Origin: an uncultured Bacilli bacterium
GTDB lineage: Bacteria; Bacillota_I; Bacilli_A; RF39; UBA660
Length of the DNA stretch: 61,059 nt
Reading direction: 5' to 3'
Assembly: GCA_947630305.1 (NCBI GenBank)
Contig: CANRHC010000002.1
Span: forward strand, 1 to 61,059
Shown: positions 122 through 29,533 of the stretch, piece by piece
Layout: every line of letters starts with the position of its first letter
Position numbering within the stretch: the stretch's first letter is position 1
Made by a program: the position numbers and the translations under genes
Notes under the pieces: model-generated
The model's input: the letters and a program-made list of their open reading frames with translations, nothing else
Database searches by the model: none
What the model was told of the DNA's origin: nothing

Positions 122-160
122 TATAACCAATGTTTAATAGTTTTGAAGGGATGTTTATAT

Positions 161-12723: not shown

Positions 12724-13663
12724 TAAACACTTTATAATAACAATTGATACTGAGGAAGATAATCAATGGAATTATGATCAAAAAGATACTACTTTAAATG
12801 TTGATTTTTTACCAAGATTTCAAGAACTTGCTGAAAAATTTGGTTTTAAACCTGTTTATTTAACTACTTATTCAATGGCTTTAAACAGTAAATTTGTAGA
12901 TTATTTTAAAGAAAAACAAAATAAAGGTTTATGTGAAATAGGTATGCATCTTCATGCATGGAATAATCCTCCAGAATATGTGTTACCTAAGATAAATAAG
13001 CAAAGACCATATTTAATAGAATATCCTACTAATATTATGGAAGATAAGATAAAAAAGCTTGATGATTTAATAACTAAAAAATTTGGAATGAAAGCAATAT
13101 CTCACAGATCAGGTAGATGGGCAATTAATGAAGATTATTTAAAATTATTAGAAAAATATAACTATAAAGTTGATTGTTCTGTTACTCCTCATGTTGATTG
13201 GCATAAGATGTTTGGCCAAACAAAGATTGGTGGAACAAATTATAAAAAAAGTAGTGAAAAAGAATATTTTATAACTGATAAAATTTTAGAAGTCCCGGTT
13301 ACTATTCGTCGATTAAGAATTTTAGAAAAAATGAGAATGAAAACATTGAAAGGTTTTGTAAAAGAGTGTATATTATATGTTACTAAAAAAAGTCAGTGGA
13401 TAAGACCATCAAATTCATTTTGTATAGATGGAATGAAAAAAGTAATTGATAAATGTAATAAAAATAATGAATATGTTATGTTTATGATTCATTCTTCTGA
13501 ACTCATGCCTGGTGGAAGTCCAAATTTTAAAACAGAAGAAAGTATAGAAAAATTATACCAAGTTATAATAGAAATATTTAAATATTTAAAAGATTTAGGA
13601 TATGTTGGTGTAACTTTAAAAGAATTTTATTCTGAATATATAGGAAGTGAGAAAAGTGAATAA
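12710..13663 (+). CDS. polysaccharide deacetylase-like protein (function uncertain)
   Basis: Cytoplasmic. TIDTEEDNQW, HLHAWN and MIHSSEL motifs resemble the metal-binding Asp/His pattern of deacetylase-like sugar-modifying enzymes. Confidence 0.4.
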   Translation: MGKNSKHFIITIDTEEDNQWNYDQKDTTLNVDFLPRFQELAEKFGFKPVYLTTYSMALNSKFVDYFKEKQNKGLCEIGMHLHAWNNPPEYVLPKINKQRPYLIEYPTNIMEDKIKKLDDLITKKFGMKAISHRSGRWAINEDYLKLLEKYNYKVDCSVTPHVDWHKMFGQTKIGGTNYKKSSEKEYFITDKILEVPVTIRRLRILEKMRMKTLKGFVKECILYVTKKSQWIRPSNSFCIDGMKKVIDKCNKNNEYVMFMIHSSELMPGGSPNFKTEESIEKLYQVIIEIFKYLKDLGYVGVTLKEFYSEYIGSEKSE

Positions 13664-14780
13664 TAGCGAAGTTGTAGTAATAGGCGGGGATCATTTTAAT
13701 ACATTATCTATAGTAAGATGTTTAGGACAAAAGAAAATTAATTTTCAAATTTTAATTCATAATGAAAGAAAAACTAAAGAAGAATTAATGATTTTACAGT
13801 CTAGATATTCTAAAAATTTAGTTTTATTAAAAGAGAGTGAAAATGATATTTTAAATTTTTTATTAAAAAATAAAGATGAAAATAAAAGAAAATTAATTAT
13901 TTCTTGTTCTGATTTAGCCCAATATACAATTGATCATAATTATCAAAAACTATTTAAGTATTATTATATTTCTGGGTTTAAAAATAATCCTGGTAGGGTA
14001 TGTGAGTTGATGGATAAATATGAGCAAAAGAAATGGGCAGATAAACATAATATATTAATGGCTAAAACTTGGAAAGTTAATAAAGATTATAAAATAAAAG
14101 ATATAACTATTCCTTGTATTATCAAGCCTTGTATTAGTGCTTTTGGTAAAAAAAGTGATATTAAAGTATGTTATAGTAAAGATGAATTGTTAAATACTTT
14201 GAATTATTATTTTGAAAACAATTATAATGAAGTTTTAATTCAAGAGTTTTTAGATAAAGAATATGAACTTTGTGCATTAGGTTGTATATTAGAAAACAAT
14301 CAAAAATATGGTAAAGTTATATATAAATTAAGAGAATATCCTTTAAATGGTGGAAGTACCTCTTATGCTAAATTTACAAGTGATTTAAGTATTGTAAATA
14401 GAGCTAATAAAATTATAGATTGTTTAATAAAAGAGGGTTATTTTGGATTATATGATATAGAAATTATTTATAGTAATGGTAAATATTATCTTAATGAAAT
14501 TAATTTTAGAAATAGTGGAAATAATTATGCACTTTTAAAATCTGGTATTGAAACTCCATATTTATTGTATTTAGAAAAATTTAATAAAGATTTATTAAAA
14601 AATTTGAAAATAAAAGATAAAGATATATATTTTATGGAAGATTTAAGTAATTTTAAATCTTTATGTGAAAAGCAAATTTCTTTATGGACTTTTGTGAAAA
14701 ATTTTTTTAGATCAAAAGCTCATTCTGTTTATTCTATTAAGGATTTAAAGGTTATTATTCATTATCTAAAAAAGAGGTGA
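13647..14780 (+). CDS. ATP-grasp carboxylate-amine ligase
   Basis: Central ATP-grasp pattern (IIKP..., LIQEFL, YELCALG) and the Mg/ATP-site motif EINFRNSGN. An alternative GTG start at 13656 lies 8 nt after AGGAAG. Confidence 0.6.
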   Translation: MRKVNNSEVVVIGGDHFNTLSIVRCLGQKKINFQILIHNERKTKEELMILQSRYSKNLVLLKESENDILNFLLKNKDENKRKLIISCSDLAQYTIDHNYQKLFKYYYISGFKNNPGRVCELMDKYEQKKWADKHNILMAKTWKVNKDYKIKDITIPCIIKPCISAFGKKSDIKVCYSKDELLNTLNYYFENNYNEVLIQEFLDKEYELCALGCILENNQKYGKVIYKLREYPLNGGSTSYAKFTSDLSIVNRANKIIDCLIKEGYFGLYDIEIIYSNGKYYLNEINFRNSGNNYALLKSGIETPYLLYLEKFNKDLLKNLKIKDKDIYFMEDLSNFKSLCEKQISLWTFVKNFFRSKAHSVYSIKDLKVIIHYLKKR

Positions 14781-14786
14781 AATTTA

Positions 14787-16256
14787 ATGAAAAATAAATT
14801 AGAAAAAGGTAATTCTGTAGTTGGTGGCCTTTTTTGGACATTTGGGGAACGAATAACTGCTCAATTGGTAACAGTAATAGTTACTATTGTTTTAGCTCGT
14901 ATTTTAGCTCCTGAACATTATGGTATTATTTCAATTGTTACGGTATTTATTTCTTTATGTAATATTTTTGTCTCAAGTGGTTTTGGAAGTGCGGTTGTTC
15001 AAAAAAAGAATGCAACTGATGATGATTTTAATACTGCTTTTGTTATTAGTTTTACGATTAGCATTTTATTATATTTGATTTTGTTTTTCTTATCACCTTA
15101 TATTGCTAATTTTTATCATATGCCTGATTTGGTTATGGTTTTACGAGTAATGGGTATAAGACTAATTATTGCATCATTAAATACAATTCAACATGCTTAT
15201 ATTCAACGTCAAATGAAATTTAAAAAATTCTTTTTTGCTACTTTATTTGGTACAGTTTTATCAGCTATTGTAGGTATTATTTTAGCTTATTTAAATTTTG
15301 GCGTTTGGGCTTTAGTGGCTCAGTATTTAATTAATACTACTGTTGATACTATTGTCTTGGCATTTGTTTGTAAATGGAAAGTTCGTTTTTATTTTAATTT
15401 AAAAAAAGCTAAAGAGTTATTTTCTTTTGGTTGGAAGGTATTATGTACTGAGTTAATATTTACTTTAGAAAGTGATATAAGAAGTTTAATTGTTGGAAAA
15501 GTTTTTGGCTCTGCTGATTTAGCTTATTATGATCAAGGAAGAAAATATCCTAGTTTATTTGTAACGAATATAAATTCATCAATCACTAAAGTTATGCTTC
15601 CGGCTTTTTCTAAAGAGCAAGATGATATAGAAAAATTAAAAAAAATGCTTCAAAAATCTGTTAAAGTAAGTACCTATGCTTTAGCTCCTTTGCTTATTGG
15701 TTTTGCCTTATTATCAGATAATTTTATTTTAATTTTTTTAACAGAAAAATGGCTTCCAGCTGTTCCATATGTTCAAATATTTTGCTTAGTTTTTTTAACA
15801 AGACCATTTGAAAATTCTTGTCATCAAGCTTTATTAGCAATTGGGAAAAGTGGGATTGTGATGAAGATTATGTTGGCTATCAATATTTTTGCCTTATTTA
15901 CTGTTTTATTTGCTGTTTTCATTTTAAAAAGTGTATATTTTATAGCAGTAGGTTCTTTATTAACCGCGGTTGTTAGTTTATCTCTTTTTATGATTATGGT
16001 AAGTATAAAAATTGGTTATAAAATATTGGATCAAATTCATGATATTTTTCCACCTATATGTATTAGTTTAATAATGGGAATTTTTGTTTATTTAATTGGA
16101 ATGATTAAACTTCCTCTTATAATATTATTAACACTTCAAATTTTAATAGGAGCAATTATATATTTGTTATTATCTGTTAAATTTAAAATTTATGGTTATA
16201 TATATTTAAAAGATAGATTATTCCATATTATTAGAAAGGTTAAAGGTGTATGTTAA
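14787..16256 (+). CDS. wzx: Wzx-type (MOP superfamily) oligosaccharide flippase
   Basis: About 14 TM helices. The N-terminal segment GGLFWTFGERITAQLVTVIVTIVLARILAPEHYG is typical of polysaccharide biosynthesis (PST) flippases. Confidence 0.8.
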   Translation: MKNKLEKGNSVVGGLFWTFGERITAQLVTVIVTIVLARILAPEHYGIISIVTVFISLCNIFVSSGFGSAVVQKKNATDDDFNTAFVISFTISILLYLILFFLSPYIANFYHMPDLVMVLRVMGIRLIIASLNTIQHAYIQRQMKFKKFFFATLFGTVLSAIVGIILAYLNFGVWALVAQYLINTTVDTIVLAFVCKWKVRFYFNLKKAKELFSFGWKVLCTELIFTLESDIRSLIVGKVFGSADLAYYDQGRKYPSLFVTNINSSITKVMLPAFSKEQDDIEKLKKMLQKSVKVSTYALAPLLIGFALLSDNFILIFLTEKWLPAVPYVQIFCLVFLTRPFENSCHQALLAIGKSGIVMKIMLAINIFALFTVLFAVFILKSVYFIAVGSLLTAVVSLSLFMIMVSIKIGYKILDQIHDIFPPICISLIMGIFVYLIGMIKLPLIILLTLQILIGAIIYLLLSVKFKIYGYIYLKDRLFHIIRKVKGVC

Positions 16257-16786
16257 TGATAAAAAGTAGAAAAGATTATAAGTATTATTTAGAATGTGAT
16301 AAAATAGCATTAGGTATTAGTAGAAAATATCCTATGCCAATTGTAGACATTATATGGAAATTTGAAAGATTATTAAGAAAATATGAATATTATAAAAATT
16401 GTTCAAAAACTATTTTTGGAAAAATATATTTAATTTTTTTGAAAATTCATTATTTTACATTATCTAGAAAATTAGGTTTTTCTATTCCAGCAAATGTTTT
16501 TGGACCAGGATTATCTATTGCTCATTATGGAACAATAGTTGTAAATTCTACTGCCCGTGTTGGCAAGAATTGTCGAATTCAAGAAGGTACTAATATTGGT
16601 TCTACTAATGGTTCTTCTAAAGCTGCAACAATAGGTGATAATGTTTTTATTGGAACTGGTGCTAAAATTATTGGCGATGTAAAGATAGGAAATAATGTTT
16701 GTATTGGTGCTGGAGCAGTTGTTACAAAAAGTTTTGGCGAAAACATCACCGTGGGGGGGGGTGCCAGCGAAAAAAATTTCATCTAA
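16250..16786 (+). CDS. left-handed beta-helix (hexapeptide) O-acetyltransferase, WcaB/CysE-like; C-terminus shifted at a G9 tract
   Basis: Hexapeptide repeats IGDNVFIGTGAKIIGDVKIGNNVCIGAGAVV. The frame ends ...VGGGASEKNFI*. Removing one G restores the family motif VGGVPAKKI and extends the ORF to 16841. Confidence 0.8.
   Translation: MLMIKSRKDYKYYLECDKIALGISRKYPMPIVDIIWKFERLLRKYEYYKNCSKTIFGKIYLIFLKIHYFTLSRKLGFSIPANVFGPGLSIAHYGTIVVNSTARVGKNCRIQEGTNIGSTNGSSKAATIGDNVFIGTGAKIIGDVKIGNNVCIGAGAVVTKSFGENITVGGGASEKNFI
16753..16761 (+). repeat. G9 homopolymer inside the acetyltransferase gene
   Basis: Nine consecutive G counted directly at 16753-16761, followed by an A7 run at 16771-16777, in an otherwise very AT-rich genome. 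Confidence 0.95.
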
Positions 16787-16870: not shown

Positions 16871-17908
16871 ATGAATGTAAGTATAAAAGTAATATTAGTA
16901 ACCGGATCTTCTGGTTTTATAGGTTCTAATTTAGTTAAGAGATTATTAAAGGAGAATAAAGATATAACAATTATTGGTATTGACAATATGAATGATTATT
17001 ATGATGTTAATTTAAAGGAATATAGATTAAATGAATTAAAACAATTTGATAATTTTACTTTCATTAAAGGAAATATTGCCGATAAAAAATTAATTAATTC
17101 AATATTTGAAAAATATAAACCAAATGTAGTTGTTAATTTAGCAGCTCAAGCTGGAGTAAGATATAGTATTTTAAATCCTGATGTTTATATTGAGTCTAAT
17201 GTAATTGGTTTTTATAATATATTAGAAGCATGTCGTCATAATCCAGTTGAACATTTAGTTTATGCTTCATCATCTTCTGTTTATGGTGGTAATACAAAAG
17301 TTCCTTTTTCAACTGATGATAAAGTAGATAATCCTGTAAGTTTGTATGCTGCCACTAAAAAAAGTAATGAATTATTTGCTCATACTTATTCTAAACTTTA
17401 TAATATTCCCACAACTGGTTTAAGGTTTTTTACAGTTTATGGTCCAGCAGGACGTCCAGATATGGCTTATTTTGGTTTTACTGATAAGTTAATTAAAGGT
17501 GAAACGATTAAAATATTTAATTATGGTAATTGTAAAAGAGATTTTACTTATATTGATGATATTGTAGAAGGCATAATTAGAGTAATGCAAAAAGCTCCTA
17601 TGAAAAAAAATGGTGAAGATGGTCTTCCCATTGCTCCATATGCCATTTATAATATAGGAAATTCCCATCCAGAAAATTTACTTGATTTTGTAAATATTTT
17701 ACAAGAAGAATTAATAAATGCAAAAGTTTTATCAAAAGATTATGATTTTGAAAGTCATAAACAGCTAGTACCTATGCAAGCAGGCGATGTGCCAGTAACT
17801 TATGCTGATACAACTCCATTAGAAAAAGAATTTGGTTTTAAGCCTAATACATCTCTTAGAGCTGGTTTAAGAAAGTTTGCCAAATGGTATAAAGAATTTT
17901 ATGATTGA
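16871..17908 (+). CDS. extended-SDR nucleotide-sugar epimerase, UDP-glucuronate 4-epimerase type
   Basis: VTGSSGFIGSNL, YASSSSVYG and YAATKK motifs. Ugd is encoded in the same locus. Confidence 0.7.
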   Translation: MNVSIKVILVTGSSGFIGSNLVKRLLKENKDITIIGIDNMNDYYDVNLKEYRLNELKQFDNFTFIKGNIADKKLINSIFEKYKPNVVVNLAAQAGVRYSILNPDVYIESNVIGFYNILEACRHNPVEHLVYASSSSVYGGNTKVPFSTDDKVDNPVSLYAATKKSNELFAHTYSKLYNIPTTGLRFFTVYGPAGRPDMAYFGFTDKLIKGETIKIFNYGNCKRDFTYIDDIVEGIIRVMQKAPMKKNGEDGLPIAPYAIYNIGNSHPENLLDFVNILQEELINAKVLSKDYDFESHKQLVPMQAGDVPVTYADTTPLEKEFGFKPNTSLRAGLRKFAKWYKEFYD

Positions 17909-18966
17909 AAATTTGTATTTCTAGAAGTATAATAGTGCAAGTTTTTATAAAGGAGTGCATTTTAAGCGTGAAAAAAATAGTTGTTAAAAATGGATTATTA
18001 AGATTTATATTATCTAGTATTATTGCTTTTATAATTTTAACTCTTTTTTGTGTTTTTTATTATAATGTTCCTCCTCAAAATAAACCATTAGATGGAACAA
18101 CTGATTATAAATGGAAATCTAATACATTTTATTCTAGAGCTACTGAAGGATTTGCTTTAGGTAAAACTAATAATGATGGTTATGTTAATGATTATGATTT
18201 TAATGATAAAACAGATATTGATGTTTTAATAGTAGGTTCATCACAAATGGAAGCCCTTGAAGTAAATATGAATGAAACAACTTCATCATTATTAAATAAA
18301 AAGTTAAAAAATCAAAATGTGTATAATATTGGTATTTCTGGACATTATTTTTTAAATTGTGTTAGCAATTTAGAAAGTGCTATAAAAAAGTATAATCCTA
18401 AAAAATATTTAATTATTGAAACTTCAAGTTTAACTTTTGATGACGAATCATTAATTAAAACGATAAATAATGAGTTAGAAGAAATTCCTTTTAAAGCTAA
18501 TGGAATATTAGGAATTTTACAACAAAATCAATTTATTAGACTTGCTTATAAACAATTAAGAAGTTTTATTGATAAAAAAAGTATTAATGATGAAGAAGAT
18601 ATTTTAAATATTAATAATTCTTCAAATTATAATGCTGAACTATTAAATAAATTATTTATAAAAATAAGAAATATATCTTCTAAAACAAATATAATTATTC
18701 TTTATCATCCAAGTACAACTATAGCTGATAATGGTAAATTAATATTATCAAGTGAAAGTGAAAATGTAGAAGAATTTAAAAAGTTATGTAATCAAAATGG
18801 AATCGATTTTTTAGATATGAGTGATAGGTTTAAACAAGAATATGAAAATAATTATCTTTTACCTTATGGTTTTAGTAATACTACAATTGGAACAGGTCAT
18901 TTAAATAAATATGGTCATCAAATGATTGCCGATGAATTGTTTAAAATAATTGAAAGGGGAAAGTAG
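17905..18966 (+). CDS. membrane-anchored SGNH/DltD-like acyl-transfer protein
   Basis: Single N-terminal TM. VGSSQMEAL (block I Ser) and GTGHLNKYGHQMIA (block V His). It lies directly upstream of the MBOAT gene. The start is probably GTG 17968, after AAGGAG. Confidence 0.5.
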   Translation: MKICISRSIIVQVFIKECILSVKKIVVKNGLLRFILSSIIAFIILTLFCVFYYNVPPQNKPLDGTTDYKWKSNTFYSRATEGFALGKTNNDGYVNDYDFNDKTDIDVLIVGSSQMEALEVNMNETTSSLLNKKLKNQNVYNIGISGHYFLNCVSNLESAIKKYNPKKYLIIETSSLTFDDESLIKTINNELEEIPFKANGILGILQQNQFIRLAYKQLRSFIDKKSINDEEDILNINNSSNYNAELLNKLFIKIRNISSKTNIIILYHPSTTIADNGKLILSSESENVEEFKKLCNQNGIDFLDMSDRFKQEYENNYLLPYGFSNTTIGTGHLNKYGHQMIADELFKIIERGK

Positions 18967-18967
18967 T

Positions 18968-20443
18968 ATGTCCTTTGCATCAATAGATTTTATTATATTT
19001 TTTATTGTAATAATTTTAGGAATTTTAATAATTCAAAAGTTTTTTTCTAATAGAGTTAAAGAAATATTTTTATTATTAGCTAGTTATTTCTTTTATGGTT
19101 ATTGGGATTGGCGTTTTTGCTTTTTACTTTTATTTGTAACAGTAAGTTCTTATTTTACAGCAAAATATAAGGATAAAAAATGTTTTTATATAATTGGAAT
19201 TATTATTCCATTAGTAGTTCTTGGTTTCTTTAAATATTTTAATTTTTTCTTAGATAATGTTTCAATTATAATTGGACATAATTTAGGTACTTTAAATATT
19301 ATTCTTCCAATTGGTATTTCTTTTTATACTTTTCAAGCTTTAAGTTATGTTATAGATGTTAAAAGAGGAACTATTGAAGAAGAAAAAGATTTTGTAAAAT
19401 TAGCATTGTATTTAAGTTTTTTTCCACAGCTTGTTGCTGGTCCTATAGTAAGAGCATCTGATTTTTTACCTCAATTAAAAGAGGATAGAAAATTAAATGC
19501 CCAAAACTTTAAATATGGTATCCAGTTAATGGCTTTTGGTTTTTTCAAAAAAATTGTTTTAGCTGATCATATATCAATTTTTGTAGATACTGTTTTTAGA
19601 GTACCAGTTGCTTTTAGCGGTTATACAATATTACTTGCTGTATTATCTTATTCCATTCAAATTTATTTTGATTTTTCTGGATATTCTGACATAGCTATTG
19701 GATGTGCCAAATGTTTAGGTTATGATTTTAATAAAAACTTTAATTTACCATTTATATCAAAAAATACTTCTGAATTTTGGCGTAGATGGCATATTTCACT
19801 TGGAACTTGGATTAAAGATTATGTATTTTATCCATTATTGAAATCAAATTTTATTCAAAGTTTAAATAAAAAATGTAAGGCAATCTTTGGTAAAAAAGTT
19901 GGTAAAAAAATTCCTTTATATTTATCAATGTTTATTACTTGGAGTTTAGTTGGTTTATGGCATGGCAGTGCTTATACTTTTATAGTCGGTTCTGGAATTT
20001 TGCAATTTTTATGGATCTTTTTGGAAGAAAACTTAGAACCATTAGCTAAGTTTATTACCAATAAATTAAAAATTAATAGAGATTCAGTTATCTTTAAAAT
20101 TTATCAAATGATTAGAACCTATTTATTATTTTCTTTTGCAATGATCTTTTTTAGAGCTAGTAGTTTTAGTAATGCATTGCAAGTAATAAAAGGAATATTT
20201 ACTTTTCAAAAAGGAATTAAATGGTCTTTTGCTTGGTCATTTATATCAATGATATTATTATTAATATTTACAATAGGTGCTGTAATTAAATCAAAGAAAA
20301 ATAATGAAAAAGAAATTGAAGGATATTATCCAATTGTTAATTTAGATACAGTTTGGGGTTTAACAATCTTTTTAGTAGTATTGGGATTAATATTTGGTTT
20401 AGCATTTACAGGTGAACAACCATTTGTATATTTTCAATTTTAG
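18968..20443 (+). CDS. MBOAT-family membrane O-acyltransferase (DltB/AlgI-like)
   Basis: FWRRWHISLGTWIKDYVFYP contains the invariant MBOAT His. Polytopic. ATG 18968 follows AAGGGGA. Confidence 0.85.
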   Translation: MSFASIDFIIFFIVIILGILIIQKFFSNRVKEIFLLLASYFFYGYWDWRFCFLLLFVTVSSYFTAKYKDKKCFYIIGIIIPLVVLGFFKYFNFFLDNVSIIIGHNLGTLNIILPIGISFYTFQALSYVIDVKRGTIEEEKDFVKLALYLSFFPQLVAGPIVRASDFLPQLKEDRKLNAQNFKYGIQLMAFGFFKKIVLADHISIFVDTVFRVPVAFSGYTILLAVLSYSIQIYFDFSGYSDIAIGCAKCLGYDFNKNFNLPFISKNTSEFWRRWHISLGTWIKDYVFYPLLKSNFIQSLNKKCKAIFGKKVGKKIPLYLSMFITWSLVGLWHGSAYTFIVGSGILQFLWIFLEENLEPLAKFITNKLKINRDSVIFKIYQMIRTYLLFSFAMIFFRASSFSNALQVIKGIFTFQKGIKWSFAWSFISMILLLIFTIGAVIKSKKNNEKEIEGYYPIVNLDTVWGLTIFLVVLGLIFGLAFTGEQPFVYFQF

Positions 20444-20485
20444 GAGTATTTATTTTTATAATTGTGAAAGGAATGTGTGGTTTTG

Positions 20486-20863
20486 ATGAAATTTCATCAT
20501 ATTGGAATAGCAACGGAAGATATATATAAGACATTAGAAAAGTTAAAAAAATTTTTTAATATTAAAAATATTAGTGAAGTTATTTATGATAAGAATCAAA
20601 ATGCCAATTTATGTATGATAATGCTTGATGATGGTATTATGATTGAATTGATAAGTGGAGATGTAGTAGCTAATATAGTAAAAAAAAGACAATATTTATA
20701 CCATACTTGTTATTCGGTTGCCAATATAGAAAAGACTATAAAAGATTTAATTGATGATGGGGCTTTTTTAGTTAAAGAGGCCAAAGAAGCTATTTTATTT
20801 GATAATCATAAGGTTGCATTTTTAATGTGGGATTTAGGGTTGATTGAGTTGTTAGAAAATTAG
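20486..20863 (+). CDS. VOC (glyoxalase / methylmalonyl-CoA epimerase-like) family protein
   Basis: N-terminal MKFHHIGIATEDI and C-terminal LIELLE are characteristic of the small VOC fold. Confidence 0.6.
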   Translation: MKFHHIGIATEDIYKTLEKLKKFFNIKNISEVIYDKNQNANLCMIMLDDGIMIELISGDVVANIVKKRQYLYHTCYSVANIEKTIKDLIDDGAFLVKEAKEAILFDNHKVAFLMWDLGLIELLEN

Positions 20864-21168
20864 TTTGTTATTGCTATAGCAACTGTGTAATTTTTTTCAT
20901 GTGAAATAGAAATACAAATATTTGAATGATTTACAACATATGGACTTCCATCATTATTTGTTAAAATTTCAAAATCTAAGAAGTTTAAATTTTTAGTATT
21001 TGGTAAGGCTTTCATAATTGCTTCTTTAACAGCAAATCTTCCATATAAATAATGAAAGCCTCTTTTTTTATATTCTTCTTGTTCTTTTTTAGTTAAAATT
21101 AAATCAATAAAATCTTGATTTTTATTTTTTAAACGATAATTTTCGACAATATCAATTCCAATAGACAT
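20860..21168 (-). CDS. acpS: holo-[acyl-carrier-protein] synthase (4'-phosphopantetheinyl transferase)
   Basis: MSIGIDIVE... GRFAVKEAIMKAL ... ISISHEKNYTVAIAI aligns along its length with AcpS. Confidence 0.8.
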   Translation of the reverse strand: MSIGIDIVENYRLKNKNQDFIDLILTKKEQEEYKKRGFHYLYGRFAVKEAIMKALPNTKNLNFLDFEILTNNDGSPYVVNHSNICISISHEKNYTVAIAITN

Positions 21169-21203
21169 TTATAATCACCTAGGTAAATTTTAACATAATT
21201 TAC

Positions 21204-21232
21204 TTGAAATAGAAAATACTAAATGTTACAAT
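21204..21232 (+). promoter_or_regulatory. sigma-A-type promoter for the FkbH-like/ACP/ugd genes
   Basis: TTGAAA (21204-21209), 17 nt spacer, TACAAT (21227-21232), with TG at 21224-21225. Confidence 0.5.
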
Positions 21233-21252
21233 ATGGCTAGTGGTGAAGAAGT

Positions 21253-23031
21253 ATGAGGGAGTTAGAGTATCCATTTGATGTTGAATATCTTATTAAAAAT
21301 AAGAAAAAAATAAAAAAGAAATTATTAGAAAGTGAAAATTTATTAGAAAAAAGGATTGCAATATTAGGTGGATCAACTACTAGTGAAATAAAAAATATGT
21401 TAGAAATATTTTTATTAAATTATGGGATTAAACCAATATTTTATGAATCTGAGTATAATAAATTTTATGAAGATGCTTTATTTGGTAATGATGATTTAGA
21501 TAATTTTAATCCAGATATTATATATATTCATACGACAAATAGAAATATAATGAATTATCCAACTTTATATGATAGTGACGAAACTGTTAATGAATTACTG
21601 GAAAATGAATATTTAAAATTTGAAAAAATTTGGAATAGTTTATTTAAGAAATTTAAAGCAACAATTATTCAAAATAATTTTGAATATCCATCTTATAGAT
21701 TATTAGGAAATATGGATGCTAGTAATATTCATGGTAAAATAAATTTTATAACTAGATTAAATCAAAAATTTTATGATTATCAAAATAAAACTAAAAATTT
21801 TTTTATAAATGATATTAATTATGTTTCAGCATGTTATGGTTTAGATAAATGGGATCAAGGTTTTTATTGGCATATGTATAAATATGCTATGGAAGTTCCT
21901 GCTATTCCTTATTTATCATTTAATATAGCTAAAATAATTAAATCTATTTATGGAAAAAATAAAAAAGCTTTTGTTTTAGATTTGGATAATACTTTATGGG
22001 GTGGAGTAGTTGGTGATGATGGAGTAGAAAATTTAGCTATTGGGCCAGAAGTACCCAGTGGTCAAGTTTATTTTGAATTTCAAAATTATTTAAAAGAGCA
22101 TAAAAGTTTAGGAGTTATTTTAAATATAAATTCTAAAAATGAATATGAAAATGCTATAGCGGGATTAAATCATCCAGCAAGCTCTTTAAAACCTGATGAT
22201 TTTATTATTATTAAAGCTAATTGGAATCCAAAAAATATTAATATTAAAGATATTTCTGAAGAATTAAATTTAGGAGCGGATAGTTTTGTATTTGTAGATG
22301 ATAATCCTGCTGAAAGACAAATTGTTAAAAATTATATTGATAAAATAGCTGTTCCTCAAATTGATATTCCTGAAAATTATATTAAAATAATTGATCGAAA
22401 TGGTTATTTTGAAGTTACTAATTTTTCTAAAGAAGATTTAAATAAAAGTGAAATGTATAAAGATAATGCAAAAAGAAGTCAAATGATGGCAACTTTTGAT
22501 AATTATGATGATTATTTAAAGTCTTTGAAAATGAAAGCTGAAATAACATCTTTTAAAAAGATTTATTTGGAAAGAATTTCACAGTTAAGTAATAAAAGTA
22601 ATCAATTTAATTTAACAACTAAAAGATATTCCCTTGCAGATATTGAATCTATTTATAACGATGATAATTACATTAAATTATATGGTAAATTAGAAGATAT
22701 TTTTGGTGATAATGGCGTGATTACTGTTGTAATTGGACATATTATAAACGAAATAGAGTTACATATCGATTTATGGATTATGAGTTGTCGAGTTTTAAAA
22801 AGAAATATGGAATTTGCTATGATGGATGAACTTGTTAAGTATTCTAGAAAAAGAAACCTTAAAACAATATATGGATATTATTATCCAACATTAAAAAATA
22901 AAATGGTTCAAGATTTTTATGATATTCAAGGTTTTGAATTAATTAATGAAGATAGTGAAGGAAATAAAAAATATAAATTAGATATTAATGAATATAAATT
23001 AAAAAATAATGTAATTGAGGTGGAAGAATAA
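21253..23031 (+). CDS. FkbH-like HAD-IIIC family protein (carrier-protein loading enzyme)
   Basis: HAD motif I in FVLDLDNTLWGG and motif FVDDNPAERQ. It has a C-terminal GNAT-like region and is immediately followed by an ACP gene. Confidence 0.7.
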   Translation: MRELEYPFDVEYLIKNKKKIKKKLLESENLLEKRIAILGGSTTSEIKNMLEIFLLNYGIKPIFYESEYNKFYEDALFGNDDLDNFNPDIIYIHTTNRNIMNYPTLYDSDETVNELLENEYLKFEKIWNSLFKKFKATIIQNNFEYPSYRLLGNMDASNIHGKINFITRLNQKFYDYQNKTKNFFINDINYVSACYGLDKWDQGFYWHMYKYAMEVPAIPYLSFNIAKIIKSIYGKNKKAFVLDLDNTLWGGVVGDDGVENLAIGPEVPSGQVYFEFQNYLKEHKSLGVILNINSKNEYENAIAGLNHPASSLKPDDFIIIKANWNPKNINIKDISEELNLGADSFVFVDDNPAERQIVKNYIDKIAVPQIDIPENYIKIIDRNGYFEVTNFSKEDLNKSEMYKDNAKRSQMMATFDNYDDYLKSLKMKAEITSFKKIYLERISQLSNKSNQFNLTTKRYSLADIESIYNDDNYIKLYGKLEDIFGDNGVITVVIGHIINEIELHIDLWIMSCRVLKRNMEFAMMDELVKYSRKRNLKTIYGYYYPTLKNKMVQDFYDIQGFELINEDSEGNKKYKLDINEYKLKNNVIEVEE

Positions 23032-23273
23032 TGGAAAAAGAAATTTATGAAAGATTAAACAATGTATTTAGAGATATTTTTGATGATGAAACTATTGAAG
23101 TGCATCCCGAAACAACTTCAGATGATATTGAAGATTGGGATTCACTAGAACACATTAATTTAGTTGTTGCAGTGGAACAAGAATTTGGAATGAAATTTAA
23201 TATGAATGAAGTAACAACTATGAAAAATGTTGGTGAAATGGTTGAAATAATTAAGAAGAATATGACAAAATAA
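23031..23273 (+). CDS. acyl carrier protein
   Basis: 80 aa, acidic. The DSLEHINLV motif carries the phosphopantetheine-attachment Ser. Confidence 0.8.
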
Positions 23274-25239: not shown

Positions 25240-25539
25240 ATGTTTTATTTAAATTTAAAACGAAAAGGTGATGTTTTATATGCACATTTAGAAGGTAATT
25301 TATGTAAAAAGACTGTTCATCATATTGAGTATTATTTAATACCTTATTTAGAAAAAAATAAAGTTAAAAATTTATGTTGTGATTGTTCTAAGTTAAAAAA
25401 ATTGGATTTAGATGGAAAATATGCCTTATTAAGTACGAAAATTGAAATGAAAAAAAATGGGGGTAGTTTTCTATTATGTAACATGAAGAAAAAGTTAAAG
25501 GAGGGTTTAATTGGTTTTCATTTTAAAATAATGAATTAG
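25240..25539 (+). CDS. STAS-domain SpoIIAA-like anti-sigma-factor antagonist lacking the phospho-serine
   Basis: Aligns without gaps to B. subtilis SpoIIAA from VL..L.G.L through LEK to GG..V.C. The MDSSG segment is LDLDG here. Confidence 0.6.
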   Translation: MFYLNLKRKGDVLYAHLEGNLCKKTVHHIEYYLIPYLEKNKVKNLCCDCSKLKKLDLDGKYALLSTKIEMKKNGGSFLLCNMKKKLKEGLIGFHFKIMN

Positions 25540-25545
25540 GAGGAT

Positions 25546-26202
25546 TTGATGAATACAGAAGAAATTATCAAGGCTAATATTCCTTTAATTAAAAAAATTG
25601 CAACTAAATTTTATAATGCACCTTTTGAAGATTTGTTTCAAGCAGGTTGTATGGGAGTAATTAAAGCATACAAAAATTATCAAAAAAATGGTAATACAAA
25701 ATTTTCTAGTTATGCTTATGATTATATTTTTGGTGAAATGTATGAATGTGTATATAAAAATCAGAAATTAAAAGTTAGTAAAGATATTATTCGTTTAGTA
25801 AGAAAAATTGAAGTTGCTAAAAATGTTTTAAGTCAAAAATTAAATCGTCTTGCTACTTATTCAGAAATTGCCGAGTTTTTAGGTTTAGACTTAAAAGTAG
25901 TTTATGAAGCAGTTAATTCTATTTATGAACCAATTAGTTTAGATGGATGTTCTAAAGATGAAAAAGATTATTATGAAACTATTCCTTTAAAAGAAAATTT
26001 ATCTTTAGATGATAAACTTACTTTAAAAGATAGTATTACATCTTTAAATCCAGATGAACAAAAAATTATCAATTATCGTTATTTTGGTGATTTGACTCAG
26101 CAAGAAATAGCGAGAAAGTTAAAAATGACTCAAGTAATGGTTTCTAGATATGAAAAGAAAAGTCTTGAAAAACTAAGACAATTTTATGAAATTGGAGAGT
26201 AA
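25546..26202 (+). CDS. sigma-70 family sigma factor, SigF/SigG/SigB-like
   Basis: Region 2 (DLFQAGCMGVIKAYKNY, FSSYAYDYIFGEM) and region 4 (LTQQEIARKLKMTQVMVSRYEKKSLEKLR). Confidence 0.8.
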   Translation: MMNTEEIIKANIPLIKKIATKFYNAPFEDLFQAGCMGVIKAYKNYQKNGNTKFSSYAYDYIFGEMYECVYKNQKLKVSKDIIRLVRKIEVAKNVLSQKLNRLATYSEIAEFLGLDLKVVYEAVNSIYEPISLDGCSKDEKDYYETIPLKENLSLDDKLTLKDSITSLNPDEQKIINYRYFGDLTQQEIARKLKMTQVMVSRYEKKSLEKLRQFYEIGE

Positions 26203-26545: not shown

Positions 26546-27160
26546 ATGATAAAAATAAGTCCATATGAAAATTTGAAAATTGAAGATTGGAAAAACAAAA
26601 CAATTGAATTAGTTGAAAATCATCCATTAAAAAAAGAAGAAATTGTTGAAGCCGTTTTAACTAGTTGGGATAAAATATTTAACACATATATAGGAAATGA
26701 GTTAAAAATAGGAAGAGACATTAAACCTAGTCCTCAAATACTTGGCAATTATTTGCATGAATTAATTCCAATATATTTTGAAAAAAAATATCATGGAAAA
26801 TGGCATAAAGATAAAACTAAAAATGATAAAGATTTAGTATGCGATTTTGATGAATTTTATTCAATTGAAATTAAAACTTCTTCTAGTAAAAAAAATATAT
26901 TTGGAAATAGAAGCTATGGTATTTTATCTAAGGAGGAAAATACCAAAAAGAAACAAGGGTATTATTTAGCAATAAATTTTGAAAAATGTACTGAAAATAA
27001 TGAAAAACCAAATATTACATTGATAAGATTCGGATGGTTAGAACATTCTGATTGGAAATCACAAAATGCTCAAACAGGTCAACAATCAAGACTATTAAAA
27101 GAAAGTTATTCCTTAAAGTTTATAGTATTATATGAAAAAAAAGAGAAAGTAATTAATTAA
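26546..27160 (+). CDS. putative type II restriction endonuclease (PD-(D/E)XK)
   Basis: D-x(n)-E-x-K signature in KDLVCDFDEFYSIEIKTS. Convergent with and 8 nt from a DNA methyltransferase, and preceded by a C-protein gene. Confidence 0.5.
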   Translation: MIKISPYENLKIEDWKNKTIELVENHPLKKEEIVEAVLTSWDKIFNTYIGNELKIGRDIKPSPQILGNYLHELIPIYFEKKYHGKWHKDKTKNDKDLVCDFDEFYSIEIKTSSSKKNIFGNRSYGILSKEENTKKKQGYYLAINFEKCTENNEKPNITLIRFGWLEHSDWKSQNAQTGQQSRLLKESYSLKFIVLYEKKEKVIN

Positions 27161-27167
27161 CTTTCTT

Positions 27168-29318
27168 TTATATTTTATGAATATTAGCCCACCAACCTGT
27201 TCTTTTAGTAACAAGATTTGATACTTCTAATTTTTCTATTAATTCTTTATTTGATTGATATAATTGATCAAATCTTTGGATACCATTAGAACTGTTTTCT
27301 TCACAAGTAGATATAGCTGAAAATAATAATGCTATAAACATATTAATAATATCTGGTTTTGTTAATTCGGCATTTACATTATTCAATCTTTTAATATTAT
27401 CTGTTAATTTTTTCATTACATTATTAACTAATTCTTCATCACTTAGTGATCTATTTTCATTTTTTTTATTACATACAAGGAACATATCAAATGCAATTGA
27501 TTCTTTGCTAGAGGTATGTGCTCCTGTTCTTGATTCAGAATGAATAGGATAAGTAGTTGTTATTTTAAATCCAGAATCTATTAACGATTTATAGATTGAT
27601 TTCCAACCATTCAAATTTTTATCATGGTATGTAAAAGCCATGATTCCATCATCTTTTAAGACTCTACAACATTCTGAATATACATTTTTTAATCCATCTG
27701 AATATGATTCATGATTTTTATTTTTAAATTTATTTACTACAATTTCTTTTAATTTTGGTGTTAATGGCTCGTTAAATCCTAATTTTTCTTTAGCATAATC
27801 TGATAAATACAACCATGAATGAAAGAAATCAAGTAATTCAGAGTACATAACATTACCACTATATGGTGGATCAGTTAATATAATGTCAATATCTTTTTTC
27901 TGAATAAAACTTAAATTTTCTGAATTAGAGCAATTTATAAATGGTTTTTCTGAAGATAAATCACTATAATTAATTGCATTATTAAATAATACTTTATCAT
28001 TGGAATATACTTTTTTGGATTTTTCACTATCTGCATATATATCATAAATATTTTCTGAAAATTCTTTTCCTTTAATTATTTTATTTACTGTTTTAATAAA
28101 TGTACCTGTTCCTAAATTTGTTCCCCAAACGCAGTTTTCTGTAGGCATACATATTGGTACATATGCATGATTAAAAAAAATATTTGTTATTTTGGTTGCA
28201 TTTGCTTGGTAACGACAAAACATATTATTATTTTCTAATATGCCTGAAAAAGCAACAGTAAACCAAAACTTATTATTTTCATTTTCAATTTTATTAATTT
28301 CATCAAATAAAATACTTAAACACAATAATTGTCTTTTATTATATAAATCTGAAAATTTTTTATATCCGTGATTGATAATTTGATTTGTATTATATCCAAT
28401 TGGTATTTCTATATTAGGTATTTTTTTATGTTTATATTCAAAATCTTCACATGCTTTTTCATACAGTTTTATATCTTCTTTAGTAGGAGTTTTATAATCA
28501 TGCGTTTTACAATGTGGACAATAGTATTCTATTGCAACTATATCTGAAGCAAATGGGTATCCGTATTTATTTTTTAAATTTGTTAATGGTATACTTTTAT
28601 TATTTATTATTATATTACCATTTTTTATATTTGAATCGTTTTCTTTATTTAAAATAAATTGGCATTTTGGACACTCAAATTCATTATTTTTATTTTTTAA
28701 AGAATTAACTACTAGAGAACAATTAGGACAAACATAGATAATTTCTTTTTTTTTAATTGCAATAATATGACTTGAAAATAATCTTATTTTTTTGTTTTCT
28801 ATATTTAATACTTTTGTATGAAAGTTATACATCATATCTGCTTTATTATGACAAATAGGGCATTCAGTTTTATAATATTTTTTAATAAATTTACCTGCAG
28901 TTTCTTCTAACTTTTTTAAATCATTATTAAAACTTTTTTTATCAATTGGTAATATTTCTGCTAAAGTAACCATTTTTGAAATAGGTTGCAAATCATTCCC
29001 AATAACTTTTGCATTTAGTCTTAATGATTCGTATATTGTTGTTCCTCCGCCCATGAATGGGTCTAATATTTTAATATCATCATCTTTTAATTTACATTGA
29101 GTATAAAAGTTATCCCAGACATTATCATTTTTATCACTTAACATTGATAAAAGCATTAATCTAAAATTACAGGTAGTTCTTCTTGCAAAATATTTATGTA
29201 TAAAAAAAATCGGTTTTTTTCTACTAGCTTCTTTTCTACTAGTTTCATATATTTTGTCGAAAGGAAAGTCATAATATATATATGATTCATTTATTTTATG
29301 TTTTTTTAAAATTGTCAT
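27168..29318 (-). CDS. DNA methyltransferase (N6-adenine/N4-cytosine type) with a DUF1156-like N-terminus and a Zn-ribbon insert
   Basis: IHKYFARRTT (DUF1156-like H-x-[WY]-[WF]-A-R-R), AdoMet motif LDPFMGGGTT, catalytic ILTDPPYSGN, and four CxxC pairs at aa 153-270. Confidence 0.8.
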   Translation of the reverse strand: MTILKKHKINESYIYYDFPFDKIYETSRKEASRKKPIFFIHKYFARRTTCNFRLMLLSMLSDKNDNVWDNFYTQCKLKDDDIKILDPFMGGGTTIYESLRLNAKVIGNDLQPISKMVTLAEILPIDKKSFNNDLKKLEETAGKFIKKYYKTECPICHNKADMMYNFHTKVLNIENKKIRLFSSHIIAIKKKEIIYVCPNCSLVVNSLKNKNNEFECPKCQFILNKENDSNIKNGNIIINNKSIPLTNLKNKYGYPFASDIVAIEYYCPHCKTHDYKTPTKEDIKLYEKACEDFEYKHKKIPNIEIPIGYNTNQIINHGYKKFSDLYNKRQLLCLSILFDEINKIENENNKFWFTVAFSGILENNNMFCRYQANATKITNIFFNHAYVPICMPTENCVWGTNLGTGTFIKTVNKIIKGKEFSENIYDIYADSEKSKKVYSNDKVLFNNAINYSDLSSEKPFINCSNSENLSFIQKKDIDIILTDPPYSGNVMYSELLDFFHSWLYLSDYAKEKLGFNEPLTPKLKEIVVNKFKNKNHESYSDGLKNVYSECCRVLKDDGIMAFTYHDKNLNGWKSIYKSLIDSGFKITTTYPIHSESRTGAHTSSKESIAFDMFLVCNKKNENRSLSDEELVNNVMKKLTDNIKRLNNVNAELTKPDIINMFIALLFSAISTCEENSSNGIQRFDQLYQSNKELIEKLEVSNLVTKRTGWWANIHKI

Positions 29319-29456: not shown

Positions 29457-29533
29457 TGGCGTCCCAGATAGGATTTGAACCTACGACGTTTCGCTTAGGA
29501 GGCGAACCCTCTATCCAACTGAGGTACTGGGAC
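29457..29533 (-). tRNA. tRNA-Arg (anticodon CCU), CCA encoded
   Basis: The reverse complement folds as a cloverleaf. Acceptor GUCCCAG/CUGGGAC, D stem CCUC/GAGG, anticodon stem UUCGC/GCGAA with loop CUCCUAA, T stem GUAGG/CCUAU with loop UUCAAAU, discriminator G, then CCA. Confidence 0.9.

Follow-up and report, generated by a model that had tools for sequence, protein, structure and literature searches.

A probable carrier-protein-dependent MBOAT-SGNH O-acylation module with an FkbH-type loader in a Bacilli polysaccharide locus

The window analysed here, a 61-kb stretch of DNA (61,059 nucleotides) from an uncultured Bacilli bacterium, a spore-former of the gut, contains a module of six open reading frames. 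These genes, and the sites within them that are discussed below, are located as follows.

17968–18966 (alternative TTG start at 17905), + strand: TM-anchored SGNH-fold protein with an N-terminal hydrophobic helix and GSSQ and GHLNKYGH blocks
18968–20443 (491 aa; 497 aa from an alternative TTG start at 18950), + strand: MBOAT, PF03062
19790–19792, + strand: codon of the MBOAT catalytic His, H281 in the 497-aa numbering, within RRWHISL; in alignment with DltB it falls in the conserved His region
19778–20182, + strand: 'donor block' in the centre of the MBOAT (about 135 aa), with PLGGNR absent and YPLLKSNFIQSLNKKCKAIFGKKVGKK in its place
20423–20440, + strand: C-terminal FVYFQF of the MBOAT, an FxYxxF acyl-shuttle motif with predicted acyl-Tyr Y494
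20477–20863, + strand: VOC-fold metalloenzyme, glyoxalase-I-like, PF13669
20860–21168, − strand: AcpS-type phosphopantetheinyl transferase, 102 aa, PF01648
21253–23031, + strand: FkbH-family loader, 592 aa, TIGR01686, TIGR01681 and PF21211 (FkbH_N)
23031–23273, + strand: discrete ACP, 80 aa, PF00550, with S38 in DWDSLEH at nucleotides 23142–23144

The open reading frames, their profile matches and the flanking genes agree with the initial annotation as to the six genes, their coordinates, order and orientation, and their setting in a polysaccharide locus. The locus is of the capsule type. It encodes a CapD-like dehydratase, an initiating sugar transferase in fusion with a GT4, additional GT4s, Wzx, a hexapeptide acyltransferase (16250–16786), an NAD-epimerase and a UDP-glucose dehydrogenase, and an AT3 acyltransferase is also encoded in the window at 2712–3713. 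The epimerase gene is on one side of the module and the UDP-glucose dehydrogenase gene on the other, in the same direction, and reading frames overlap or nearly abut. The window has one MBOAT and one SGNH partner and no others, and the genes that flank the module include none of the PKS, FabH-like, FkbK/I/G-type or tetronate kinds.

Profile searches, proposed as a check with the initial annotation, bear out its description of a 592-aa FkbH-like HAD-IIIC protein: the score against TIGR01686 is 244.7 bits (cut-off 146.65), TIGR01681 (HAD-IIIC) matches at 61 bits, and PF21211 at E=1e-10. The protein consists of an FkbH_N domain, a HAD-IIIC phosphatase domain, in which LDLDNTLWGG begins at residue 242, and a C-terminal transferase domain. 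D243, D245 and T247 do not vary among 32 diverse relatives, and S511-C512-R513 is close to invariant; the family is large, with 13,405 clusters at 50% identity, and PDB entry 3slr (B. fragilis BF1531, labelled uncharacterised) matches with E=7e-50. The FkbH-family enzymes of polyketide and tetronate pathways covered by the source used here all load a glyceryl unit that they take from 1,3-bisphosphoglycerate; the window protein is likewise predicted, from its family, to make glyceryl-S-ACP.

The ACP matches PF00550 and several NCBIfam ACP models, below cut-off, and has the expected DSL motif within DWDSLEH, which begins at residue 35 and places the phosphopantetheine attachment serine at S38. 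Of the structures it matches, the putative ACP 2lml ranks first (E=3e-17), and DltC is not among them. Most of the related FkbH loci also encode a recognisable ACP homologue, as a rule immediately after FkbH. The opposite-strand gene is an AcpS, as had been claimed (PF01648, E=8e-15; TIGR00556 above cut-off and TIGR00516 just below), and an AcpS gene occupies the matching position upstream of FkbH in two other loci, L010 and L171. Its product is probably a dedicated phosphopantetheinyl transferase that converts the apo-ACP to the holo form.

The small protein encoded after the MBOAT has the VOC fold assigned to it earlier (PF13669, E=2e-16). Models for methylmalonyl-CoA epimerase and glyoxalase I match only weakly, far below their equivalog cut-offs, and the nearest structures are Glyoxalase-I and lactoylglutathione lyase entries (3hdp and 2qh0, E=8e-18). 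The HHIG, IEL, YH and IELLE blocks are conserved, and the four metal-ligand positions are kept. Glyoxalase I converts a hemithioacetal to a 2-hydroxyacyl thioester, and both it and methylmalonyl-CoA epimerase act through an enolate or enediolate on the carbon that adjoins a thioester. We predict that the window enzyme acts on a 2-hydroxyacyl thioester bound to the ACP, for instance epimerising C2 via an enediolate. VOC genes in other FkbH loci adjoin the MBOAT and never occur together with MaoC and SDR genes.

Homologues and an independent gene call favour the start at 17968 for the SGNH-fold protein, giving 332 aa rather than the 353 aa from the TTG start. A Pfam profile search returned no match to this protein, and sequence similarity to DltD, PatB or AlgX/J was looked for and not found; its family of about 335 homologues is unnamed throughout. 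An AF2 model (pLDDT 88, pTM 0.87) has an N-terminal helix at residues 2–31, and its top Foldseek matches are all SGNH hydrolases, with probability 1.0. S92 (in GSS), H126, H311 (in GHLN) and H317 are invariant in the family. The label 'DltD-like' given to this protein at the outset stands for architecture and fold and fails for the sequence family; lacking any DltD sequence match, the protein is not a DltD homologue. Wherever neighbouring sequence is available in other loci that carry the family, an MBOAT gene is directly beside it. The protein is predicted to be an extracytoplasmic acyltransferase that passes an acyl group from the C-terminal Tyr of the MBOAT to form a glycan ester.

The MBOAT matches PF03062 with E=1e-17, and since RRWHISL begins at residue 278, the invariant catalytic His of the initial annotation is H281. 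Against the DltB model TIGR04091 the protein reaches 147 bits, where the cut-off is 375, and the DltB structures 6bug and 8jem match with E=1e-20. A DltB-like type was rejected for this protein on its fused FxYxxF end, as found in PatA/AlgI-type enzymes; one close homologue is annotated AlgI. FVYFQF occupies residues 492–497, preceded by hydrophobic segments at 422–449 and 460–493, and the same FxYxxF end is present in 55 of the 57 MBOATs of FkbH loci. In MBOAT-SGNH pairs the Tyr of this motif carries acyl groups, and the acyl donor of DltB is a carrier protein (PMC12148441). With its own fused shuttle the window MBOAT therefore has no need of DltX, and we predict that it is a transmembrane relay from acyl-ACP to its C-terminal Tyr.

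The closest relatives of the MBOAT-SGNH pair, the stand-alone pairs L166–L168 (62–69% identical to that of the window), lack FkbH and ACP, and thus the pair can use another donor. Identity of the window MBOAT is 64% to that of L168, which has the same capsule-locus layout as the window but ends after the MBOAT, and 41% to the FkbH-linked MBOAT of L010. These relatives, and the presence of other acyltransferases (hexapeptide and AT3) in the locus, favour an alternative explanation in which the genes are unrelated neighbours: the MBOAT-SGNH pair would be an acetyl-CoA-dependent O-acetyltransferase, and FkbH, ACP, VOC and AcpS would feed a separate cytoplasmic step, such as the N- or O-acylation of a nucleotide sugar, carried out by a different transferase of the locus or by the FkbH C-terminal domain. 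We consider this quite unlikely, because the window MBOAT departs from its relatives exactly in the block following the catalytic His, where PLGGNR is lost and a block of the FkbH-linked type is gained. PLGG(N/S)R follows this His, at 43-aa spacing, in 115 of the 120 closest homologues; a longer basic loop without PLGGNR is found only in the window MBOAT and two others (P0406 and P0409). A prediction set beforehand, that a loader and a carrier would lie beside such MBOATs, held for both: P0406 has an AMP-binding enzyme and a 77-aa carrier as its neighbours, and P0409 an FkbH and an 81-aa ACP. Within the clade an adjacent loader accompanies 5/5 members without PLGG and 0/37 with it (Fisher p=1.2e-6, with sequences that are not all phylogenetically independent).

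PLGG(N/S)R is also absent from FkbH-adjacent MBOATs of two other lineages and from DltB, and in loader-adjacent MBOATs a longer basic loop usually replaces it. There are exceptions: at L080 a PLGGNR MBOAT abuts FkbH and a second, non-PLGG MBOAT is beside the ACP, and at L166 no loader is visible near a non-PLGG MBOAT. In sliding windows, residues 1–270 and 406–491 of the window MBOAT are 60–97% identical to stand-alone relatives, and residues 271–405 only 10–47%; this central segment shares mostly 47–77% identity with FkbH-type MBOATs, apart from one sub-window where the value falls to about 30–37%, and outside it the stand-alone relatives are the closer ones. As judged by these alignments, the protein is a mosaic of stand-alone-clade ends and a central block from FkbH-linked MBOATs. 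It looks like a natural domain swap, in which a putative ACP-type donor block was joined to a shuttle end matched to the SGNH family of the window. By the positive-inside rule, the PLGGNR site and the basic loop would face the cytoplasm and contact CoA or ACP.

Co-occurrence was examined in 80 loci with related FkbH genes, from distinct species in several phyla, and the association, which the initial annotation proposed to analyse, is tight and same-stranded. An MBOAT is no more than 7 kb from FkbH in 55/80 loci (29/39 of those with full flanks), within 3.5 kb in 51, and on the FkbH strand in all 55; the median gap is 1.4 kb. The SGNH partners belong to at least four families (S3, DHHW/AlgX-like, GDSL and that of the window) and gene order varies. 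Such adjacency across phyla, with non-homologous SGNH partners, is poorly explained by hitch-hiking and further argues against unrelated neighbours, but about one third of loci, including the closest FkbH relative (L171, a short contig), have no MBOAT near FkbH-ACP, and FkbH-ACP therefore has other outlets. The FkbH-ACP-MBOAT-SGNH combination is not rare and is widespread in gut anaerobes.

Many of these cassettes, some of them isolated MBOAT-DHHW-FkbH-ACP sets, are outside any glycan locus (e.g. L042, L052, L074, L075 and L083), and two stand-alone pairs of the SGNH family of the window (L002 and L003) are beside unrelated genes. The relay could thus operate as proposed on a different envelope polymer, for instance lipoteichoic or wall teichoic acid, peptidoglycan or a secondary cell-wall polymer. 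We regard this as unlikely given the position of the module between two polysaccharide genes and the similar placement of the L168 and L169 pairs inside polysaccharide loci.

Tailoring genes also vary between FkbH loci (VOC, MaoC and SDR, or a split transketolase), which implies varied cargo. The relay might then carry another acyl group: the loader could use a different phosphorylated or activated acid, or the VOC enzyme could form lactoyl-S-ACP from methylglyoxal and holo-ACP, as the names of its nearest structures suggest. Membership of the FkbH family is at the domain level, in a 590-aa FkbH_N-containing clade known from sequence, with an uncharacterised protein as its structural match. 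This too seems improbable to us, as the catalytic motifs of the HAD domain and the Cys are retained, the described family members share glyceryl as cargo, and minimal cassettes have no tailoring enzyme, so that FkbH alone must supply a transferable acyl group.

We therefore think it probable that the module directs carrier-protein-dependent MBOAT-SGNH O-acylation of a cell-surface glycan, with an FkbH-type loader instead of an adenylating enzyme. This reading, the core of the initial annotation, is well supported because synteny, the MBOAT donor signature, its mosaic structure and the successful prediction for P0406 and P0409 agree. From these and the domains and motifs observed we infer the chemistry, the acyl group and the acceptor. 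AcpS would convert the 80-aa ACP to its holo form, and the HAD phosphatase domain and conserved Cys of the FkbH-like protein would move a glyceryl unit from 1,3-bisphosphoglycerate to the ACP thiol. The VOC enzyme would modify the 2-hydroxyacyl thioester, most likely by epimerisation at C2 via an enediolate. The MBOAT would take the acyl group from ACP at the cytoplasmic face and, through its catalytic His, pass it to Tyr494 in FVYFQF at the outer face; the Ser of the SGNH partner would receive it and esterify a hydroxyl group on the polysaccharide that the Wzx-type locus around the module produces. The cargo would be glyceroyl or a derivative, a glycolysis-derived hydroxy-acid. To our knowledge the carrier-dependent MBOAT route has so far been described only for D-alanylation of teichoic acids, and we know of no glyceroyl-ester-bearing glycan from this lineage; no description of an FkbH/ACP-fed MBOAT-SGNH system was found in the literature searched. 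If correct, this reading extends carrier-dependent acylation to a surface sugar polymer and an FkbH-loaded acyl group.

The module resembles the Dlt system (DltA, DltC, DltB, DltX and DltD), in which a small loaded cytoplasmic carrier is the acyl donor of an MBOAT, and an FxYxxF acyl-Tyr hands the group to a membrane-anchored SGNH-fold protein that esterifies an extracellular polymer (PMC12148441). Both MBOATs lack PLGGNR. The window differs in having an FkbH/HAD-IIIC enzyme in place of adenylating DltA, a predicted glycolysis-derived hydroxy-acid in place of D-Ala, an ACP-like protein in place of DltC, and a shuttle motif fused to the MBOAT via two extra TM segments in place of the DltX microprotein. 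Its SGNH protein lacks sequence similarity to DltD, its acceptor is likely a Wzx-pathway polysaccharide rather than teichoic acids, and it comes with an AcpS of its own and a VOC enzyme for tailoring.

PatA/PatB (peptidoglycan O-acetylation), AlgI with AlgJ/AlgX, and Wss share with the window an MBOAT with a catalytic His, a fused C-terminal FxYxxF and an adjacent SGNH or AlgX-like partner, and the stand-alone relatives described above are of this type. Such pairs are described as carrier-free and acyl-CoA-using (PMC12148441), whereas the window MBOAT adjoins a loader, ACP and AcpS and has, in place of PLGG(N/S)R, the basic loop common to other carrier-linked MBOATs. FkbH/FkbJ, Mad7/Mad8 and Mad14/Mad12 likewise combine an FkbH-family enzyme with a discrete ACP, yielding glyceryl-S-ACP from 1,3-bisphosphoglycerate; their tailoring is by dehydrogenases and a methyltransferase, in contrast to VOC in the window (MaoC and SDR, or a split transketolase, in related loci), where the acyl unit would pass downstream to an MBOAT-SGNH pair encoded in a glycan locus. 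Finally, the VOC protein is, like glyoxalase I and methylmalonyl-CoA epimerase, small and single-domain with four conserved metal-ligand positions, but it is encoded in an ACP-dependent acylation module and its substrate is presumably an acyl-S-ACP.

All six open reading frames of the putative acylation module were found in the order originally described, and profile searches assigned five of their six products to families (MBOAT, VOC, AcpS, FkbH family and ACP). The FkbH-like protein scores 244.7 against TIGR01686 (cut-off 146.65), 61 against the HAD-IIIC model TIGR01681 (cut-off 35.75) and 41.9 against the FkbH_N domain PF21211 (cut-off 27). Among 32 diverse relatives, residues D243, D245 and T247 of the HAD DxDxT motif are invariant and S511-C512-R513 nearly so; from the OzmB and FkbH literature, we take the conserved C-terminal cysteine to be the acyl-enzyme site. 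The start of the ACP gene (PF00550) overlaps the FkbH stop, placing an ACP next to the loader as expected of the FkbH family. This family comprises 13,405 clusters at 50% identity, and formation of glyceryl-S-ACP from 1,3-bisphosphoglycerate is established for its polyketide-associated members. One homologue, the 2554-aa P0341, was considered as a link to FkbH domains embedded in polyketide synthases and rejected; it has no polyketide synthase character and contains instead a radical-SAM/SPASM domain, flanked by two FkbH-like HAD and C-terminal domains 35–36% identical to the window's protein.

AcpS matches PF01648 (55.3 versus a cut-off of 25) and TIGR00556 (53.7 versus 45.35), falls just under the cut-off of the equivalog TIGR00516 (52.4 versus 59.8), and with both an ACPS domain and a holo-ACP synthase profile match is an AcpS-type phosphopantetheinyl transferase. 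The VOC protein matches PF13669 (60.8 versus 27), which gives superfamily membership only, and it is below the equivalog cut-offs for glyoxalase I (TIGR00068, 27 versus 120) and methylmalonyl-CoA epimerase (TIGR03081, 27.5 versus 115). Its nearest structures, 3hdp and 2qh0, are Glyoxalase-I/lactoylglutathione lyase entries, and all four ligand blocks are conserved.

The first protein had been called DltD-like, a description that holds for its architecture and fold and fails for DltD sequence homology. It has no Pfam match at E≤0.01; Pfam, NCBIfam and phmmer searches found no relationship to DltD, PatB or AlgX/J, and a 36-sequence profile compared with all PDB sequences gave no match to any of these. 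Weak matches to epsilon-toxin and BceA were dismissed as low-complexity noise. An AlphaFold (AF2) model built from 36 homologues (pLDDT 88) has a helix at the N-terminus and then a domain for which Foldseek gives exclusively SGNH hydrolases (probability 1.0), DltD being absent among the 50 matches listed; the SGNH assignment thus derives from the fold search, which alone placed the protein. GSS92 and H311 are invariant, and the Asp of block V is not conserved (G-x-G-H). The gene overlaps the MBOAT start, so that the MBOAT has an adjacent, anchored SGNH-fold partner with a Ser nucleophile and a His. This SGNH family is an obligate MBOAT partner, its gene abutting that of an MBOAT in about 60 metagenomic loci, with a loader or carrier in almost none of them.

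The MBOAT itself (PF03062, 65 bits; cut-off 27) has the expected fold and catalytic His, its RRWH281 aligning with the DltB His region, and its best NCBIfam model is DltB TIGR04091 at 147 bits against a cut-off of 375. Its extreme C-terminus, following two extra hydrophobic segments, reads FVYFQF (residues 492–497), a version of the FxYxxF acyl-shuttle motif that is C-terminal in 55 of 57 MBOATs of related FkbH loci. In the PatA/PatB model, the MBOAT passes an acyl group to the invariant Tyr of FxYxxF and the SGNH partner moves it onto the polymer (PMC12148441). The Dlt pathway uses the carrier protein DltC as donor, with the shuttle motif on the microprotein DltX, whereas other MBOAT-SGNH pathways have the motif fused to the MBOAT on two extra transmembrane helices, a feature absent from DltB; these other pathways were described in 2025 as carrier-less and acyl-CoA-using (PMC12148441). 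Judged by its sequence architecture, the window's MBOAT is of the PatA/AlgI type, yet it lies beside a loader, an ACP and a dedicated AcpS.

Three other loci, L166-L168, contain the pairs most closely related to the window's MBOAT-SGNH pair; these loci have no FkbH, and their MBOATs are 62–69% identical to the window's. L168 shares the capsule-locus layout of the window, ending after the MBOAT. In another MAG, FkbH-ACP adjoins a different MBOAT pair, and a window-type pair is located elsewhere on the same contig. Since the nearest pairs are carrier-less and the two elements are separately placed in one MAG, the window's pair could be a plain O-acetyltransferase, although residue-by-residue comparison of the MBOATs removes most of this doubt. 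Every stand-alone relative, with no adjacent loader or carrier, contains WHISLS-W-x-EYLYIPLGG(N/S)RKG after the catalytic His, and the next WHG comes after 43 residues. PLGGNR is missing from nearly every MBOAT directly adjoining FkbH, in three lineages, and also from DltB; in one FkbH-adjacent group we find a 60-residue segment with a lysine-rich loop (YPLLKS…FGKKxGKKIP), and in a second, DHHW-partnered group a 40-residue PIFGKRR-type segment. Second MBOATs of FkbH loci keep PLGGNR where they are distant or on the other strand.

Of the 120 homologues closest to the window's MBOAT, the canonical PLGG(N/S)R block is present in 115, and only the window's protein and two homologues, P0406 and P0409, combine its absence with a longer basic loop. 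A loader and carrier were predicted beforehand from this signature to lie beside both homologues, and both have them: P0406 precedes an AMP-binding enzyme, a GNAT and a 77-aa carrier, and P0409 a 593-aa FkbH and an 81-aa ACP. An adjacent loader is present for 5/5 non-PLGG and 0/37 PLGG members of the clade (Fisher p=1.2e-6, for sequences that are not all phylogenetically independent), the non-PLGG members spanning at least three loop types. We infer that the PLGG(N/S)R block may be tied to CoA use. One exception to the signature is at L166:6963-9551, where an MBOAT without PLGGNR keeps the 43-residue spacing and has a 367-aa partner, with no loader or carrier in view.

Sliding-window comparison shows that residues 1–270 and 406–491 of the window's MBOAT are 60–97% identical to stand-alone relatives, whereas residues 271–405 are 10–47% identical to these and mostly 47–77% identical to FkbH-linked MBOATs of another lineage. 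This pattern indicates that the protein joins a carrier-type central block to a shuttle end that fits the SGNH family of its own partner.

The association of loader and MBOAT drawn in the initial annotation recurs across genomes. A scan of one genome per species yielded 80 loci with FkbH proteins 47–83% identical to the window's, in taxa including Lachnospiraceae, Oscillospiraceae, Ruminococcus, Eisenbergiella tayi, Odoribacter splanchnicus, Synergistaceae, Endomicrobia and Epsilonproteobacteria; most contain an ACP homologue, usually directly 3' of FkbH. An MBOAT lies within 7 kb of FkbH in 55 of the 80 (29/39 where flanks are complete) and within 3.5 kb in 51, with a median gap of 1.4 kb, and all 55 share the FkbH strand. 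The SGNH-type neighbours of these MBOATs belong to a 347-aa TM-anchored family with GSSN and DGAHFN blocks, to DHHW/AlgX-like proteins, or to GDSL proteins; the window's own SGNH family was considered as a general FkbH partner and discarded, being present in none of the 80 loci. Gene order is variable. The MBOAT-SGNH pair and FkbH-ACP might be two independent systems, and for about one third of FkbH-ACP pairs no MBOAT lies close by; we give this lower weight, with the ACP, AcpS and loader adjoining an MBOAT that carries, in the sequence data, the carrier-associated signature.

FkbH loci differ in their tailoring genes, which are absent, or comprise a VOC protein, a MaoC-type dehydratase with an SDR, or a split transketolase. 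The window has the VOC set, as do L009 and L010, its close FkbH relatives, and this set never co-occurs with the MaoC and SDR set. The latter, with a hotdog dehydratase in place of VOC, is present in L006-L008, L011-L017, L033, L051, L060 and L084 (e.g. L008:3029-4178); lactoyl-ACP would result if glyceryl-ACP were dehydrated and then reduced, a route that resembles the proposed BryA loading module of bryostatin. Split transketolase genes, for N- and C-terminal subunits, occur in L014, L016, L022, L034, L040 and L041 (e.g. L040:2782-3717), adjoining or soon after FkbH and ahead of or near the ACP, and L047 has a transketolase-N gene (16987-17823) some 6.7 kb downstream. These genes suggest a further kind of ACP-bound unit, perhaps a glycolyl-type group of two carbons. 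The window's SGNH family and MBOAT clade also occur with AMP-binding enzymes and a 75–77-aa carrier in L004 (5430-10017), L005 and L172 (486-5911), where one of these enzymes carries a fused nitroreductase domain and a GNAT comes after another; we regard these loci as Dlt-like systems for some acid.

The module is embedded co-directionally in a Wzx-type polysaccharide locus with genes for a CapD-like dehydratase, an initiating transferase-GT4 fusion, further GT4s, an ATP-grasp protein, Wzx, a hexapeptide transferase, an epimerase and UDP-glucose dehydrogenase. Other features of the window are as follows.

143-1429, plus strand: 3-hydroxyacyl-CoA dehydrogenase, start of the polysaccharide region
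1441-2694, plus strand: thiolase-like protein, start of the polysaccharide region
2712-3713, plus strand: AT3-family membrane acyltransferase, start of the polysaccharide region
12710-14780, plus strand: 317-aa protein without a family match and 377-aa ATP-grasp-like protein, between the glycosyltransferases and Wzx
25240-26202, plus strand: STAS-domain protein (99 aa) followed directly by a sigma-70-family factor (218 aa)
26546-27160, plus strand: ScaI-type restriction endonuclease
27168-29318, minus strand: 716-aa protein with an N6/N4 DNA methylase domain, convergent with the endonuclease
29460-29533, minus strand: tRNA gene

The first three genes look like a second custom acyl-supply module, possibly with 3-hydroxybutyryl-CoA feeding the AT3 O-acyltransferase; in L167, AT3, thiolase and SDR genes are inserted between the MBOAT and a second SGNH-like gene. 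The 317-aa and ATP-grasp-like proteins may add an amino acid or other acid as an amide to the repeat unit, and L168 has a gene with a weak ATP-grasp-type match at the same position. The endonuclease and methylase genes likely constitute a type II restriction-modification system. No anti-sigma kinase gene separates the STAS and sigma-factor genes, an unusual layout for a SpoIIAA/sigma-F-like pair; together with a GerA germination operon, this pair points to a spore-forming Firmicute host. The window has a G+C content of about 24%. In the one-genome-per-species scan, the MAGs most closely related to it come from rabbit gut and are named uncultured Bacilli or Clostridia.

We infer each chemical step of the module. 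AcpS would convert the ACP to holo-ACP, and the FkbH-like enzyme would load it with a glyceryl unit from 1,3-bisphosphoglycerate. The VOC enzyme would act on the 2-hydroxyacyl thioester, our preferred guess being C2 epimerisation by analogy with methylmalonyl-CoA epimerase. The MBOAT would then accept the acyl group from the ACP, probably through the basic loop, which by the positive-inside rule would lie on the cytoplasmic side; His281 would catalyse transfer to Tyr494, and the SGNH partner would esterify the polysaccharide. A cargo other than a glycerate-derived group carries lower weight, set beside the variety of tailoring genes on one side and the FkbH-family loader on the other. We similarly give lower weight to an acceptor other than the locus polysaccharide; many FkbH loci are isolated MBOAT-DHHW-FkbH-ACP cassettes, and the window's module is surrounded by polysaccharide genes.

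With moderate confidence, we read these data jointly as a class of FkbH-fed, carrier-dependent MBOAT-SGNH systems, widespread in gut and rumen anaerobes, in which a swappable block after the catalytic His sets the MBOAT donor. On this joint reading, the FkbH loader diverts 1,3-bisphosphoglycerate to glyceroyl esters on surface glycans, tailoring by VOC, MaoC and SDR or transketolase may yield epimeric glyceroyl, lactoyl or glycolyl groups, and the choice between acyl-CoA and acyl-carrier would correspond to PLGG(N/S)R versus the basic loop, a swap illustrated by the window's chimeric MBOAT. Literature searches found no paper linking FkbH with MBOATs in the acylation of envelope polymers, or linking FkbH with capsules, O-antigens or teichoic acids, and the system was not found in work on HAD-IIIC proteins with ACPs or on MBOATs with carrier proteins and capsular polysaccharide; in the source databases these proteins have no label, or are 'MBOAT family protein' or 'hypothetical'. 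These searches are in line with the earlier view that this gene combination has no characterised example, and the module is widespread rather than a one-off.

Together with its many relatives, the module points to a second branch of MBOAT-SGNH systems that is carrier-dependent and widespread, with a different loader and cargo. It predicts that abundant gut Firmicutes, Bacteroidota and Synergistota bear new ester substituents of glyceroyl or lactoyl type on their capsules or wall polymers, which would affect antigenicity, recognition by phages and the immune system, and the properties of the polymer. The PLGGNR-versus-basic-loop signature is a candidate donor-type annotation for proteins now named just 'MBOAT family protein' and a testable specificity marker, and the mosaic MBOAT is a natural domain swap for locating donor-binding and partner-binding regions. 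Cultured carriers of these loci, Odoribacter splanchnicus (L025) and Eisenbergiella tayi DSM 26961 (L023), make the predictions directly testable.

Systems of the PatA/AlgI type are described as using acyl-CoA and no carrier, whereas the window has carrier and loader genes and its MBOAT is missing PLGG(N/S)R. Dlt is loaded by a DltA-type AMP-binding enzyme, whereas AMP-binding domains are absent from all six module proteins and the loader is of the FkbH/HAD-IIIC type; DltB has no fused shuttle and is accompanied by a separate DltX, whereas the window's MBOAT has a fused FVYFQF and scores below the DltB cut-off; and Dlt has a DltD-family SGNH protein, whereas the window's SGNH protein has no DltD match. 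Because these three defining features are missing, the module is not a member of Dlt; it would work like Dlt, with another loader, another cargo and a fused shuttle.
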